Source of the DNA: Chlamydiota bacterium
GTDB taxonomy: Bacteria > Chlamydiota > Chlamydiia > Chlamydiales > Parachlamydiaceae
Length of the DNA stretch: 64,000 nt
Direction: 5' to 3'
NCBI GenBank assembly: GCA_013287465.1
Contig: JABDDS010000002.1
Span: 10,326-74,325, forward strand
Below are positions 331-60,300 of this stretch, in pieces. Each line of letters opens with the position of its first letter. Positions within the stretch are counted from its first letter, which is position 1. Made by a program: the position numbers and the translations under genes. The notes beneath the pieces were generated by a model. That model worked only from the letters and a program-made list of their open reading frames with translations, was not told the DNA's origin and did no database searches.

Positions 331-525
331 CTAAGCCGCGGATGCGGCAAAAGCATGTAGCCATGGGCGTAAGCCCATGGATGGATCAAATCAATCATAT
401 GAGCCGCGAATGCGGCGACAGGCTTATAGATTTTCCTGTCGCCGCATTCGCGGCTCTTCACTCTATTTCGTTTTTCCATGGGCTTACGCCCATGGCTACA
501 TGCTTTTGCCGCATTCGCGGCTTAG
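331..525. repeat. nested palindromic element (family E): 50-bp inverted repeat enclosing a second 22-bp-stem hairpin
   Basis: Arms 331-380 and 476-525 are reverse complements with 1 mismatch (g/a). Inner hairpin is gagccgcgaatgcggcgacagg (401-422) / cctgtcgccgcattcgcggctc (435-456). Each outer arm ends in its own mini-hairpin ccatgggc-NNNN-gcccatgg. It fills the gap between convergent stops at 314 and 545. Confidence 0.9.
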
Positions 526-544
526 CACCGAAACTCACGTTAAG

Positions 545-1879
545 TTAAGACTCTTTGCTCTTCACAAAAACAACTTCGTTACGCAAGACAAAGATGCCTA
601 TCAAATTGGTGATTAACAGCAATGCACCAGCGAGGGACATAATAAGCAAGGCTTGTGTCTGATCGACGAAAGAGAATGCAATCAAAGCGCAGGCTCCATA
701 AATCAAATACAATGGCATACCACATTTTGGATAGAGAAAACGCGCACACTTAATCCCCACACAAAAGTAAGCAATCATCGTGCTATAACCAACAATAAAA
801 AGAAAAATGGGCATAAAAATATGCATATATGGGAAATATTGAGAAAGGGCTGTTTGAACGAGCAGCGAACCTGGGATGGGCTCTTCAGAAATCCAAACCC
901 CTGACATAAGCACAACCAATATACTCATTGTACACACGATGTTATCCACACAGACACCTAAAACAGCTAAACCAGCCTGCCGCTCCGGGTAAATGGTGTT
1001 TGATTCACTCTGAATAATTGAATCATACCCAATTCCAATATCAGCTGAGTAAGCAGCCCTTGAAATTCCATGCTGAATTGCCAAAAGAACGCTGCTTCCC
1101 ACAAAGCCCCCAATGGCAGCATGTCCTGTAAAAGCAGAGATAAAAACCGTTTTTAATAAAGCCGGCAACATTGTGATTTCGTTAAAAATGATCCAGAGGC
1201 ACATCACTGTGTAAAGTCCCATGAAAAAAGGCATCACGATGGAGCAGATTTTCCCCACTCTAGAAACCCCACCAACACTCGCATAAAGAACCAAAGTAAG
1301 CAGTCCCCCTATAACCAAGTAGCGATTCAGAGAAAAATTTGAGGCCAAGCTATCGGTCACAACTGCAAACTGGTAGATTTCCACTCCATAAACACAAAGC
1401 AATATCGCAATAAAAATAGGGATAAAACGATTGCTAAACGCTTGTTGGAGGAAGTACATCGGCCCGCCATCATAGCTTCCGCGATCATTCGTCACTCGAT
1501 ATTTGAGGCCTAAGAAAATTTCCGAATATTTAATGATTGTCCCAATGAAAGCAGCGACCCAAACCCAAAAAAGAGCTCCTGGTCCACCGATTTGGATTGC
1601 CGTGACTATAGCTACGACATTGCCGATTCCGATCATTCCGCCAACAGAGGCAAAGAAAGCCCTGAGAGGATGAACCCCTCTCACACCTTTTCCCGATTTA
1701 CCTAATAAAAAGAAAAACATTTTGAAGATCGAAGGCAAAGCACGTATCTGAAAAAAACGGGCTTGATAGGTCAGACAACATCCAAGTAATAAAATCAAAA
1801 CGAACGCAATATAACCCCAAAAAAAGCTATCTACATTCATTAAAAAACCAAAAATCGATTCGAGCATTACGTTCTCCAA
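545..1879 (-). CDS. sodium:alanine (amino acid:cation) symporter, AGCS family
   Basis: 444 aa polytopic membrane protein. GGMIGIGNVVAIVTAIQIGGPGALFWVWV matches the AGCS signature (GxGNIxGVAxAIxxGGPGAxFWMW). Confidence 0.85.
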   Translation of the reverse strand: MENVMLESIFGFLMNVDSFFWGYIAFVLILLLGCCLTYQARFFQIRALPSIFKMFFFLLGKSGKGVRGVHPLRAFFASVGGMIGIGNVVAIVTAIQIGGPGALFWVWVAAFIGTIIKYSEIFLGLKYRVTNDRGSYDGGPMYFLQQAFSNRFIPIFIAILLCVYGVEIYQFAVVTDSLASNFSLNRYLVIGGLLTLVLYASVGGVSRVGKICSIVMPFFMGLYTVMCLWIIFNEITMLPALLKTVFISAFTGHAAIGGFVGSSVLLAIQHGISRAAYSADIGIGYDSIIQSESNTIYPERQAGLAVLGVCVDNIVCTMSILVVLMSGVWISEEPIPGSLLVQTALSQYFPYMHIFMPIFLFIVGYSTMIAYFCVGIKCARFLYPKCGMPLYLIYGACALIAFSFVDQTQALLIMSLAGALLLITNLIGIFVLRNEVVFVKSKES

Positions 1880-1910
1880 AAAAAATACTTATCCGACGAG
1901 CGGGGATATA

Positions 1911-2036
1911 GACCACATTTCAACATTTTTCTGTTCCTACGCGAAGCGTTTGGAGTGCGAAAGTCCTCTTTCGCTTTGTTGTTCAAGATAAAGCGAAAGA
2001 GGACTTTCGCACTCCAAACGCTTCGCGTAGCATTGG
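1911..2036 (+). repeat. family A palindromic element, copy 1 (94-bp palindrome 1937-2030 plus conserved asymmetric 5' flank)
   Basis: ctacgcgaagcgtttggagtgcgaaagtcctctttcgcttt ... aaagcgaaagaggactttcgcactccaaacgcttcgcgtag, arms perfectly complementary. 5' flank gaccacatttcaacatttttctgtt and 3' flank cattg are shared with copy 4. Confidence 0.9.
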
Positions 2037-2058
2037 CTCTTCTTATGTATCAATATGC

Positions 2059-58220: not shown

Positions 58221-58309
58221 TAAAAATCTCACTTTACTCGTATCTCTCTTAAGTGTATTGTGAAGATTATAGGGTGCAATGAAAATATAAGTTGAAAAAA
58301 AACACATAA

Positions 58310-58402
58310 CTACGCGAAGCGTTTGGAGTGCGAAAGTCCTCTTTCGCTTTACCTTAAAAACAAAGCGAAAGGGGGCTTTCGCACTCCAAACGCTTCGCGT
58401 AG
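58310..58402 (+). repeat. family A palindromic element, copy 3 (lacks the 5' flank)
   Basis: ctacgcgaagcgtttggagtgcgaaagtcctctttcgcttt ... aaagcgaaagggggctttcgcactccaaacgcttcgcgtag. Confidence 0.9.
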
Positions 58403-58475
58403 TAATTGAGGCGTATTTTATCAATCTATACTTTTAGTTAAACCAAAGATCATACATTTTTATGGAAGAGTACAC

Positions 58476-60137
58476 ATGCATTCTAGTCTTTTAATTGTTG
58501 GGATTTTGACAATAGGATTTACATTGGCAAGTCTTCTTGCCTATATCATGCAACGTTGCAGGCTTCCCTCCATTTTGGGTTATCTGTTAGCCGGTTATTT
58601 TATTGGTCCTTACTCACCCGGTTTTGTCGCAAATGCCGATATTGCAAATCAGCTCGCTGAAATTGGAGTGATTTTAATGCTTTTCGGTGTAGGGATGCAT
58701 TTTAAAATTGAAGATTTAATTCGAGTCAAAAACATTGCGATTCCAGGAGCTATCTTACAAACATCTGCAGCAACGATTTTTGCAGCTTTAATTGTTCATT
58801 ATGTGGGATGGTCGCTCGAGGGAGGACTGATCATTGGATTGTCAATCGGAGTTGCCAGTACAGTCGTATTGGTAAGGATGTTAGCAGACAACCGTATGCT
58901 TGATACTCAAAAAGGACATATTGCTGTTGGTTGGCTTGTAGTAGAAGATATTTTTACTGTACTTGTCTTGATTTTACTTCCTACAATAGCAGCGATCTCC
59001 GCAGGAGCAACTTTTTCCGGAACCGAGATCATAGGCTCCATTTTGTTTGTGATCGTCAAATTTTGCCTTTTGGCACTATTTATGTTCACATGGGGATATA
59101 AAGCCATTGAATATGCTTTAACCAATATTGCCCGTTTACGTTCTCAAGAGTTATTTACTTTAACAATTGTTACCGTCGTCTTTCTAATTGCAACAGGCTC
59201 CTCGGTCGTGTTTGGAACATCGATTGCGTTGGGCGCATTCATTGCAGGGATGGTCATCGGAAAAACGAATGTGAAGCACCAGGCTGAAGCGAGTGCACTA
59301 CCCATTAAAGATATTTTCGGAGTGATCTTTTTTCTTTCAGTAGGCATGCTTTTTAACCCTGCGGCTCTTGTCACTCACTACACTCTTTTCACAGGTATTA
59401 TCTTTATTATTCTCATTATAAAACCCCTGGTAGCTTATTTGATCACTCTATTTTTAGGATATTCTGTAAACACTGCATTGACTGTGGCGATCTCCTTAGC
59501 ACAAATAGGAGAATTTTCTTTTATTCTAGCTGAAGAAGCGATGAATTTGAACGTGATCCCAGAAGAGGGTTTTGACATCCTTGTCGCTTGTGCTTTGATC
59601 TCCATTTCTTTAAACCCATTATTTTTTCAAATGATTGGATCTTTTGAATCTGTACTTCAGAAACTCCCCTTTCATAAAAGAGCCAAGAATGATCTTCCTA
59701 GTCCGATGGAGGTCAAGGAAGAACTTTCTCCCAAAGTTTTAGTCGTTGGTTTTGGTCCGATTGGGCAGGAAGTATCAAGAATAGCCAAAGATGCTGGTTT
59801 TGTTCCTGTCATTATCGAACAAAATATTGACACCGTTTCAAATATAGAAGAGGGAAATATCATCCTTTTCGGCGACGCTGGGGATTCAAATATTCTTAAG
59901 AACGCTCGTATTGCGGAAGTCAGCCATTTGGTCATTACAATCCCGGACACTAAAAAAATAGTGGAAATTATTCATGCAGCACAACGTGTGAATCCTGATA
60001 TTACAATCATCACACGAGTGCAATACATTGCAGAACAACCCTTAATGGAAATGTTAAATGTGCATTATATCTGCGCAGAAACAGAATCATTAAAGGCATT
60101 TGTTTCTTTAACTCGTCGACTATTTGCAGAAGCCTGA
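58476..60137 (+). CDS. monovalent cation:proton antiporter-2 (CPA2, Kef/YbaL-type) with C-terminal RCK/TrkA-N domain
   Basis: 553 aa. About 12 helices (GYLLAGYFIGP, LAEIGVILMLFGVGMHF) followed by the Rossmann-like VLVVGFGPIGQEVSR. Confidence 0.88.
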   Translation: MHSSLLIVGILTIGFTLASLLAYIMQRCRLPSILGYLLAGYFIGPYSPGFVANADIANQLAEIGVILMLFGVGMHFKIEDLIRVKNIAIPGAILQTSAATIFAALIVHYVGWSLEGGLIIGLSIGVASTVVLVRMLADNRMLDTQKGHIAVGWLVVEDIFTVLVLILLPTIAAISAGATFSGTEIIGSILFVIVKFCLLALFMFTWGYKAIEYALTNIARLRSQELFTLTIVTVVFLIATGSSVVFGTSIALGAFIAGMVIGKTNVKHQAEASALPIKDIFGVIFFLSVGMLFNPAALVTHYTLFTGIIFIILIIKPLVAYLITLFLGYSVNTALTVAISLAQIGEFSFILAEEAMNLNVIPEEGFDILVACALISISLNPLFFQMIGSFESVLQKLPFHKRAKNDLPSPMEVKEELSPKVLVVGFGPIGQEVSRIAKDAGFVPVIIEQNIDTVSNIEEGNIILFGDAGDSNILKNARIAEVSHLVITIPDTKKIVEIIHAAQRVNPDITIITRVQYIAEQPLMEMLNVHYICAETESLKAFVSLTRRLFAEA

Positions 60138-60175
60138 CCTCGATCATAGACAAAACACGCAGAGGCGAAATTATG

Positions 60176-60300
60176 GACCACGTTTCAACATTTTTCTGTT
60201 GCACGCGAAGCGTTTGGAGTGCGAAAGTCCCCTTTCGCTTTGCCTTAAACAACAAAGCGAAAGGGGACTTTCGCACTCCGCGCGAATCGCGCAGCATTGA
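60176..60300 (+). repeat. family A palindromic element, copy 4 (with 5' flank; right arm terminally degenerate)
   Basis: ggaccacgtttcaacatttttctgtt-gcacgcgaagcgtttggagtgcgaaagtcccctttcgcttt ... aaagcgaaaggggactttcgcactccgcgcgaatcgcgcag-cattg. Located between convergent stops 60137 and 60357. Confidence 0.9.

Follow-up and report, generated by a model that had tools for sequence, protein, structure and literature searches.

Why should palindromes of unrelated sequence occupy so many gene boundaries of one chlamydial genome? The question is raised by a 64,000-nt stretch of a Parachlamydiaceae contig (GenBank assembly GCA_013287465.1, contig JABDDS010000002.1, positions 10,326 to 74,325 of the forward strand), here called the window, in which all positions below are numbered. 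A preliminary description of this DNA listed 14 such loci, placed them in six families (A to F) plus a singleton, and offered two alternatives. The structures might be selected for their own sake, for example as terminators, or they might form a guild of non-autonomous mobile elements that prefer the 3' ends of genes. Our results agree with the second alternative, and independent structural selection is not needed to account for them. The loci are likely non-coding, non-autonomous repeat families that have colonized the intergenic DNA of an environmental Parachlamydiaceae genome, of the same kind as repetitive extragenic palindromes (REPs), bacterial interspersed mosaic elements (BIMEs) and miniature inverted-repeat transposable elements (MITEs). 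The elements are copies of dispersed modular repeats, they are biased toward 3' ends, and the hairpins of their modules have been kept by compensatory change.

According to the model that we favor, the elements are assembled from modules of about 35 to 45 nt, which are small hairpins in families A, B, and E and short tandem-repeat arrays in families C, D, and F. A module may stand alone, but inverted pairs are commoner, and it is these pairs that yield the long palindromes. Duplication or transposition of copies is itself evident, and we infer that an enzyme acting in trans has spread them. Copies would then persist where they do the least harm, which is just past stop codons and especially in gaps between convergent genes, as no promoter is hit there.

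The palindromes and their modular plan

Chance is excluded as the source of the palindromes, since exact inverted 14-mers no more than 400 nt apart number 295 in the window, compared with a mean of 7.9 and a maximum of 16 in 20 dinucleotide-preserving shuffles. An inverted-repeat search, together with reading of the sequences, recovered all 14 loci at, or a few bases from, the positions first reported. Two pieces were added to them, a partial E-type module at 5356-5382 and a fragment of family C at 34833-34847. Together, the elements take up 33% of the non-coding bases of the window. Their GC content is 0.486, against 0.325 in other intergenic DNA and 0.41 in coding DNA; the view that the loci are GC-richer than their surroundings holds on average, but A2, A3, C1, and F (0.40-0.44) bear it out weakly, and it fails for the singleton at 15628-15684 (0.32), which had been recognized as an exception from the start.

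Not every locus is a palindrome, as had been assumed: C1 (13209-13268) and D3 (55925-55960) are solo arms, that is, short tandem-repeat arrays, whereas the other loci are palindromic. The families were called unrelated, and indeed the sequence similarity between them is not significant, yet a modular building plan is common to them. Family D holds together in part. D2 and D3 are similar (0 of 200 shuffles), while the similarity between D1 and D2 is borderline (2 of 200) and depends on a common CCTCTG/TGCCTCTG motif.

A further possibility is that the foldbacks are artefacts, namely chimeras that arose during metagenome assembly or library preparation. The window does come from a metagenome-assembled contig, and the Logan assembly of SRR8433713, which contains the same organism and whose short-read contigs were used for comparison, has contigs that break inside B1, C1, B2, A3 (contig L105), and A4. 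Yet Logan contigs and window agree at 100% up to and into the edges of the elements, assemblies made independently in other studies contain the same modules, and the elements lie between intact genes at consistent positions. An artefactual origin is thus extremely improbable. One further Logan contig, L106, ends at window position 39764, inside the start of an S1/P1 nuclease gene, where no repeat was recognized.

Family A is a dispersed module

Family A is represented by four elements in the window. A1 (1911-2036, plus strand) lies at a tandem junction 3' of an ankyrin gene and consists of a 94-nt hairpin (1937-2030; arms of 41 nt that pair at 100%, loop of 12 nt) with a left extension of about 25 nt. 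A2 (32678-32806, plus strand) lies in the divergent gap upstream of a ribosomal-protein operon, and A3 (58306-58406), a copy without the left extension, is at a tandem junction. A4 (60176-60300, plus strand) occupies the convergent gap 60137/60357 and contains an inverted repeat (60204-60291) whose right arm is degenerate. The module itself, ACGCGAAGCGTTTGGAGTGCGAAAGTCCTCTTTCGCTTT, comprises two mini-hairpins, CGC-GAA-GCG and GCGAAAG-NNNN-CTTTCGC, and the second stem shows AT-to-GC compensatory changes among 82 distinct copies. In the window copies, mismatches between the two arms lie in the 4-nt loop of the small hairpin. As these mismatches are confined to that loop, the conserved unit is the module, and the 94-nt hairpin follows from the pairing of two modules.

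The 24-nt core of the A arm has matches at 80 or more loci, distributed over four Parachlamydiaceae metagenome-assembled genomes (MAGs) and one contig labeled Verrucomicrobia. At these loci, the repeat alone matches the window and the genes do not. Altogether, at least 143 A arms were counted in 515 kb of these loci. Their arrangement varies among genomes: the modules stand tail to tail with a short spacer in MGR_bin366 and head to head, with a loop of 11-12 nt, in the window and in BWSM_84. In SW_11, the module forms the ends of an element of about 340 nt, present in at least 20 copies of 83-93% identity, with inverted ends of at least 70 nt (for example, at loci L010, L022 [6842-7212], L045, and L057). 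Next to this MITE-like element there are often additional paired modules (GCCCTGAAAGGGC-GACAC and GGCCTGACGGCC). Between loci L024 and L035, orthologous genes carry A on opposite flanks. Comparison of orthologous junctions (L030/L078 and L020/L045) did not reveal a clean empty site, and neither the A nor the E core matched any of the viral contigs scanned.

Element E is related to the Acido-Lenti-1 motif

Element E (331-525), in the convergent gap 314/545, is an inverted pair of modules of the Acido-Lenti-1 type (RF01687) placed around a central hairpin. Its 51-nt arms (331-381 and 475-525) are 98% complementary. In a permissive Rfam search, the left arm (334-380, minus strand) aligned to positions 1-46 of the 46 positions in RF01687 with 31.5 bits, and the right arm (476-522, plus strand) aligned over the full length with 32.5 bits; both scores fall short of the gathering score of 37, and at gathering scores no Rfam family matched the window. 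Most other sub-threshold matches were meaningless fits of microRNA precursors to long hairpins, and Acido-Lenti-1 alone was followed.

Read on the opposite strand, the left arm begins with GTAG, continues with a 20-nt hairpin (CCATGGGC-GTAA-GCCCATGG), and ends with a second hairpin (GCCGC-GGAT-GCGGC). The inner hairpin of E (401-456) is in turn an inverted pair of a sub-module, GCCGC-GAAT-GCGGC followed by GACAGG, with 22-nt arms that are 100% complementary. A partial third module (…ACCCATGGCTACATG; 5356-5382, plus strand) lies directly left of element B1 and scores 18.4 bits (E=0.018) with a purpose-built covariance model. Two full modules and one partial module of E are therefore found in the same 64 kb that hold the four A elements.

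A scan of metagenomes with the E module yielded 19 loci, and at least three of the contigs concerned carry orthologues of Parachlamydiaceae genes. Twelve related metagenome copies exceed the RF01687 gathering score (37.9-49.5 bits); these are mostly inverted pairs, 60-120 nt apart, in either orientation. By this comparison, the window arms are divergent relatives of a family that includes their closest homologues. In the genomes that bear family A, the purpose-built E model returned weak candidates only.

The alignment of the 19 sequences shows strong covariation: 8 of 13 base pairs change on both sides, none of 500 shuffles equaled the observed score, and sliding the partner columns abolishes the signal. 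GTAG stands directly 5' of the hairpin (CATGTAG followed by CCATGG…), and its complement, within GGCTA, is invariant in 19 of 19 aligned copies. The search pattern included GTAG; Rfam hits found independently show it too. In four sequence features, the E module appears to correspond to the GTAG-tagged form of REPs; the decisive feature, a cognate REP-associated tyrosine transposase (RAYT), was not found in the 763 kb searched. Family A has no such tag, as its flanking tetranucleotide is variable (CTAC, TCAG, GTTA) and in the opposite orientation.

The 2010 description of Acido-Lenti-1 drew on 89 copies from Acidobacteria and Lentisphaerae, mostly from two genomes (PMC2864571 and its supplement), and rated the motif a probable small RNA (sRNA) of unknown function that is "sometimes near group II introns" (PMC2864571). 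The E arms, and perhaps other modules, could accordingly be genes for trans-acting sRNAs rather than mobile DNA. The full-length Rfam match, the related copies above the gathering score, and the strong covariation all speak for this explanation, as does the grading of the motif as probably RNA by Weinberg et al. (PMC2864571). The behavior of the copies does not fit it well. They usually form inverted pairs, which occur in either orientation and differ in spacer and partner; they are multi-copy, including the original 89 representatives with their concentration in two genomes; they are biased toward 3' ends; and they carry a conserved GTAG 5' of the hairpin, as REPs do. We consider it quite improbable that the E arms are primarily sRNA genes.

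The likeness of E to the published motif extends to the two-hairpin architecture and the conserved CUAC-AU..UGUC linker, and the E arms align over the whole model. What differs is the setting: the motif is known from its description only in Acidobacteria and Lentisphaerae, as a candidate sRNA, whereas here it behaves as a dispersed inverted-pair repeat at gene ends. No paper was found that links Acido-Lenti-1 to REPs or to Chlamydiae. Tying this orphan Rfam motif to a REP-like, inverted-pair, 3'-end-biased repeat provides a testable hypothesis for the motif.

Elements prefer convergent junctions and 3' ends

Of the junctions between the 67 genes of the window, 7 are convergent, 6 are divergent, and 53 are tandem. 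An element is present at 5/7 of the convergent, 5/53 of the tandem, and 3/6 of the divergent junctions, and the convergent class is enriched relative to the rest (5/7 versus 8/59; Fisher p=0.002), which upholds the enrichment suggested in the preliminary description. The same description held that every open convergent gap contains a palindrome. All five do, but the argument is partly circular. Once the element is subtracted, the gaps measure about 35, 3, 57, -6, and 94 nt, so that the elements themselves open these junctions. Overlapping convergent pairs number two (45745/45737 and 53680/53666), not three as had been counted.

Junction preference is also seen outside the window. In other genomes, family A occupies 12/45 convergent, 23/206 tandem, and 3/58 divergent junctions, and its clusters face a 3' end in 50 instances, with a median distance of 128 nt, and a 5' end in 30, with a median of 224 nt. 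When an A cluster lies at a tandem junction, the upstream stop codon is the nearer gene end in 19 of 26 cases. The E module elsewhere occupies 4/9 convergent, 6/46 tandem, and 1/8 divergent junctions. This bias toward 3' ends and convergent junctions is the distribution known for REPs, among them copies at convergent junctions that are no more than 20 bp away from either 3' end (Di Nocera et al. 2013, PMC3733652).

As reported earlier, the elements lie outside intact genes; the contact with genes is nevertheless tighter than was described, since the arms of D1 include both convergent stop codons. Contact with genes is seen at some insertions: D1 gives both stop codons of its gene pair, the C fragment gives one, and B1 with the E fragment abuts a remnant of the peptide deformylase gene (def).

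Some elements contain terminator-like signals. All four A copies have terminator-like sub-hairpins on both strands, GCGAAAG-NNNN-CTTTCGC followed by TTTG or TTTA; in A1, these are at 1957-1974 and 2010-1993, one per strand. The B elements have a sub-hairpin, TGCGCCC-N6-GGGCGCG, followed by TTTGTTTATT or TTATTTACCA, on both strands of B2 and on the minus strand of B1 (5658-5638, a GC-rich hairpin with a run of T). At an inverted pair built in this way, with a hairpin and T-run on either strand, a polymerase meets a terminator-like signal whichever side it comes from. In D1, D2, and E, no hairpin-plus-T-run match was found, and the long stems as wholes lack a trailing T-run.

These signals bear on the remaining alternative of the preliminary description, namely that the palindromes are primarily selected cis structures (bidirectional terminators, 3'-end stabilizers, or insulators) whose multi-copy nature is secondary. 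It would account for the filling of 5/5 open convergent gaps, often flush with both stop codons, for the GC-rich hairpins with T-runs in A and B, and for hairpins that are predicted to be extremely stable and module stems that covary. But the copies have a common ancestry and are dispersed across genomes, the gaps owe their existence to the elements, and B1 adjoins a truncated gene. Neither are the elements restricted to the ends of transcription units: the divergent class accounts for 3 of the 13 occupied junctions (with A2, D2, or the singleton), and upstream of the V-type ATPase (V-ATPase) operon there is C1. D1, D2, and E, moreover, are without the hairpin-plus-T-run signature, and long stems are not followed by a T-run. 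Selection of the palindromes primarily as cis structures is, in our judgment, unlikely. Under the mobile-repeat model, bidirectional termination would be a secondary role that probably makes A and B tolerable or mildly useful, as their sub-hairpins suggest.

Element B and the deformylase remnant

B1 (5391-5694) is a nested palindrome of about 300 nt (5392-5690) with terminal inverted repeats (TIRs) GGTGATT…AATCAC, and its right end is 2 nt from the stop codon of atpK. The second copy, B2 (34498-34791; inverted repeat 34523-34764), is 92-97% identical to B1 and lies in the convergent gap 34477/34845. Both are built of several GC-rich mini-hairpins and are predicted to fold as hairpins of about 140 bp with free energies of -201 and -229 kcal/mol for B1 and B2, respectively. 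In an alignment of the four arms, left and right arms hold different AT-rich spacers, and these differences are common to B1 and B2; hence, the whole asymmetric element of about 300 nt was duplicated. The ends of B read GGTGATTNAAAG…CTTTTAATCACATCC, and a sharp right end, …AATCACATCC, is common to the two copies. The flanks of B2, AAAAGACTATGG and AAAAACTATAAGG, are suggestive of a possible target-site duplication of about 9 bp.

The 3' end of the V-ATPase operon, where B1 resides, is conserved in two relatives that lack B and have other hairpin mosaics in its place, one of which includes a decayed A module. On the other side of B1 lies the def remnant (5095-5370, minus strand), which is truncated at its 5' end and matches positions 99-151 of the 156 in the Pfam profile. 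The apparent start of the corresponding open reading frame (ORF; 5095-5445, minus strand) enters B1, and its homology ends where the E fragment and B1 begin. The remnant is probably a pseudogene that lost its 5' part through, or together with, the insertions of the E fragment and B1. It adjoins a 561-nt gap (4534-5094).

Families C, D, and F and an AT-rich palindrome

The arms of C, D, and F consist of tandem units of 6-9 nt; those of C are based on AAGGAC, those of D are CCTCTG/CACAGAGG, and those of F are CCTGACAT. C1 (13209-13268, plus strand), the solo C arm upstream of the V-ATPase operon, is made of AAGGAC-based 9-mers. C2 (17551-17829) is a foldback-like palindrome (17576-17827) with arms of tandem AAGGAC units of 7, 9, and 48 nt; it occupies the whole of the convergent gap 17547/17830 and directly adjoins the grgA stop codon. 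Two 48-nt tandem units in its left arm (17590-17685) are 100% identical, and the arm segments 17654-17710 and 17755-17811 are 100% complementary, which points to an expansion that is very recent or to homogenization still under way. The C fragment, CGTCGTTTGTCCTTT (34833-34847, plus strand), overlaps the gene 34845-35351 and supplies its stop codon. Compared with C2, it is an exact identity of 15 nt, for which we estimate a chance expectation of about 1e-4 in 64 kb.

D1 (40515-40761) has arms of about 70 nt, containing CCTCTG/GGCACA 6-mers, around a unique core of about 100 nt; the arm ends, TAATAG…CTATTA, contain both convergent stop codons. D2 (44776-44873), in a divergent gap, is a hairpin with 43-nt arms of CACAGAGG 8-mers, and its module recurs in SW_11, where it stands as a solo arm and also as a pair that is oriented the other way round and has a spacer of 110 nt. 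D3 (55925-55960, plus strand) is a solo arm of three CCTCTGCG units that is related to the left arm of D2; arrays resembling it occur at loci L092 and L100. F (55736-55847) lies in a tandem gap and has 35-nt arms (GTCAGGCCTGAC plus two CCTGACAT units) around a 42-nt core. A 70-codon ORF without a family match (55564-55776, plus strand) enters the left arm of F by 41 nt and takes its last codons and stop from it; it may be a small gene re-terminated by F, or it may be spurious.

Could such arms have spread without a transposase, by template switching during replication, hairpin-primed synthesis, slippage of short units, or gene conversion between copies? The short tandem repeats in the arms of C, D, and F would be expected from such processes, as would the 100% identical 48-nt duplication and the perfectly complementary arms of C2, and no transposase was found in the sequence searched. 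Slippage, however, is a local expansion. It leaves unexplained the near-identical modules at dozens of unlinked loci in several species, as well as the sharp boundaries common to the B copies. As an explanation for the elements, transposase-free spread is very improbable.

Still other sequence families make up long intergenic palindromes in relatives of the window organism. Nested intergenic palindromes of unrelated sequence lie at L103:2082-2301, L103:8056-8242, L082:567-732, and L082:3874-4205; the two copies in L103 have a common core, AAAATAAGAGGG(C/T)CATATT, and gene callers place "genes" of 58-59 amino acids on these palindromes. Tandem arrays also stand at gene ends in related genomes, with GGGCAY 6-mers (L078:320-350), CTTTGCGC 8-mers (L092:9790-9830), and CAGGATAGG 9-mers (L028:4400-4480). 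This suggests that tandem-repeat arms like those of C and D belong to a wider class.

The AT-rich singleton (15628-15684) differs from the other loci in composition and placement. It is a perfect palindrome with 27-nt arms, a 3-nt loop, and 32% GC, and it lies in a divergent promoter region, in a 395-nt gap between strong promoter-like sites at 15515-15487 (minus strand) and 15524-15552 (plus strand). It is probably not part of the guild and could be an operator or a structure of a 5' untranslated region.

Mobilizing enzyme and comparison with known systems

For A and E, a single-strand route of the HUH (histidine-hydrophobic-histidine)/RAYT type would be the most likely means of spread, in view of their hairpin modules, both pair orientations, variable spacers, lack of a clear target-site duplication, and, in E, the GTAG tag. 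B would be more like a classical TIR-type MITE, given its TIRs and the possible 9-bp duplication at B2.

Several observations weigh against the mobile-repeat model as a whole. No transposase, RAYT, or integrase was found among the window genes scanned, every one of which confirms the earlier statement that the window is free of transposases. The 10 ORFs next to E modules are ordinary genes according to Pfam, and an all-versus-all comparison of ORFs in the 515 kb of A flanks found that the only multi-copy "ORFs" are the pseudo-ORFs of the repeats themselves. A tblastn search with Escherichia coli RayT gave no match in 763 kb, which covers a minor part of each genome. Convincing target-site duplications were not identified either: at B1, E, F, C2, and D1, none could be distinguished from inverted ends or stop codons. 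A second copy of F, D1, or the AT-rich singleton did not turn up in any sequence searched; B and C are seen in the window alone; and B, C, and F are unmatched in the other loci compared. Finally, the strong covariation of the E module would fit a role as RNA equally well. Two other classes of repeat were considered and rejected: integron attC sites, as the flanking genes are housekeeping operons, and CRISPR, as there are no regular repeat-spacer arrays.

Among known systems, the REPs, BIMEs, and REPINs (REP doublets forming hairpins) of Proteobacteria, for whose GTAG-tagged REPs RAYTs are the mobilizing enzymes, are similar in having short GC-rich hairpin modules that stand alone or are joined in inverted pairs of either orientation, with spacers that vary and in mosaics. 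The inverted doublets of E and A, like REPINs, are able to form a larger hairpin. The E module carries GTAG immediately 5' of its hairpin, and GTAG plus a palindrome is the definition of a GTAG-REP (PMC3733652); the preference for convergent and unidirectional junctions near 3' ends is likewise a feature of REPs (PMC3733652). In contrast to REPs, no RAYT was found in the 763 kb searched, the A module is without a conserved tag, arm length is greater (40-140 nt) with nesting of the arms, and the modules of C, D, and F are tandem-repeat arrays. The host, a chlamydia, is also from a group outside the coverage of the REP surveys that we found.

Bacterial MITEs, such as Correia/NEMIS of Neisseria, ERIC, RUP, and Nezha, resemble the elements in their size of 100-350 nt, TIRs, multiple copies, and intergenic location, and their format fits B and the 340-nt element of SW_11. 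Some MITEs, such as Correia, carry terminators or promoters. Unlike MITEs, the elements have yielded neither a clear target-site duplication nor a parent insertion sequence (IS) in the 515 kb of A flanks, and, unlike a fixed MITE TIR, the same end module also occurs reversed and as a singleton. Rickettsia palindromic elements (RPEs) offer a parallel as palindromic repeats proliferating in an AT-rich obligate intracellular bacterium. RPEs are typically inserted in frame within genes, whereas the window copies are all outside intact genes and at most give a stop codon (D1 and the C fragment) or abut a truncated gene (B1). Two further likenesses are analogies only: the long inverted arms of short tandem repeats in C, D, and F recall eukaryotic foldback (FB) transposons, and the hairpin-based format without an obvious target-site duplication recalls the palindrome-associated transposable elements (PATEs) derived from IS200/IS605.

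A literature search for REPs, MITEs, or RAYTs in Parachlamydiaceae found nothing relevant. Repeats of the REP/MITE kind at 3' ends are known in other bacteria but apparently have not yet been described in Parachlamydiaceae. A bolder proposal is that Acido-Lenti-1 and its companions are REP/BIME-type mobile DNA spread across the Planctomycetes-Verrucomicrobia-Chlamydiae (PVC) group and Acidobacteria, moved in Parachlamydiaceae by an enzyme that is recognizable neither as a RAYT nor as an IS transposase, and co-opted there, through its inverted-pair design, as a standard bidirectional terminator or insulator for convergent genes; we regard this as speculative and rather unlikely.

Chlamydial genomes are usually regarded as repeat-poor. 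As the elements make up one-third of the non-coding DNA of the window and recur in environmental Parachlamydiaceae, annotation pipelines can be expected to call spurious small ORFs in them, and short-read assemblies to break at them, as the Logan contigs do. The elements also mark sites of turnover beside conserved operons and at least one gene truncation, that of def. If the terminator-like sub-hairpins work, the elements could serve as portable terminators, effective in both directions, for organisms in which genetic manipulation is difficult.

Genomic setting of the window

The window is chlamydial, from an uncultured member of the Parachlamydiaceae of the amoeba-symbiont type, and includes the V-ATPase operon (5697-13180, minus strand), a large ribosomal-protein/rpoA cluster (19757-32402, minus strand), and a gene for a GrgA-family transcription factor (17830-18768). 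The closest other match to the V-ATPase A subunit has about 85% amino acid identity, and the named matches are from Parachlamydiaceae. No close strain was found in the databases, the nearest relative being about 85% identical in this highly conserved subunit. The window contains no tRNA or tmRNA genes.

Genes of the symbiont type encode ankyrin-repeat, DUF4116, and GMA12/MNN10-type proteins. Eukaryote-like genes for a GMA12/MNN10-family galactosyltransferase (16301-17011), an S1/P1 nuclease (38733-39776), and an ankyrin-repeat protein (2059-4533) are consistent with a protist-associated lifestyle. Two genes have internal tandem repeats: the ankyrin-repeat gene, with 3.4 copies of a 201-nt unit at 97% identity (2262-2946), and a DUF4116/DnaJ-domain gene, with 3.8 copies of a 168-nt unit at 95% identity (33327-33963). 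These intragenic repeats are recently amplified protein repeats.

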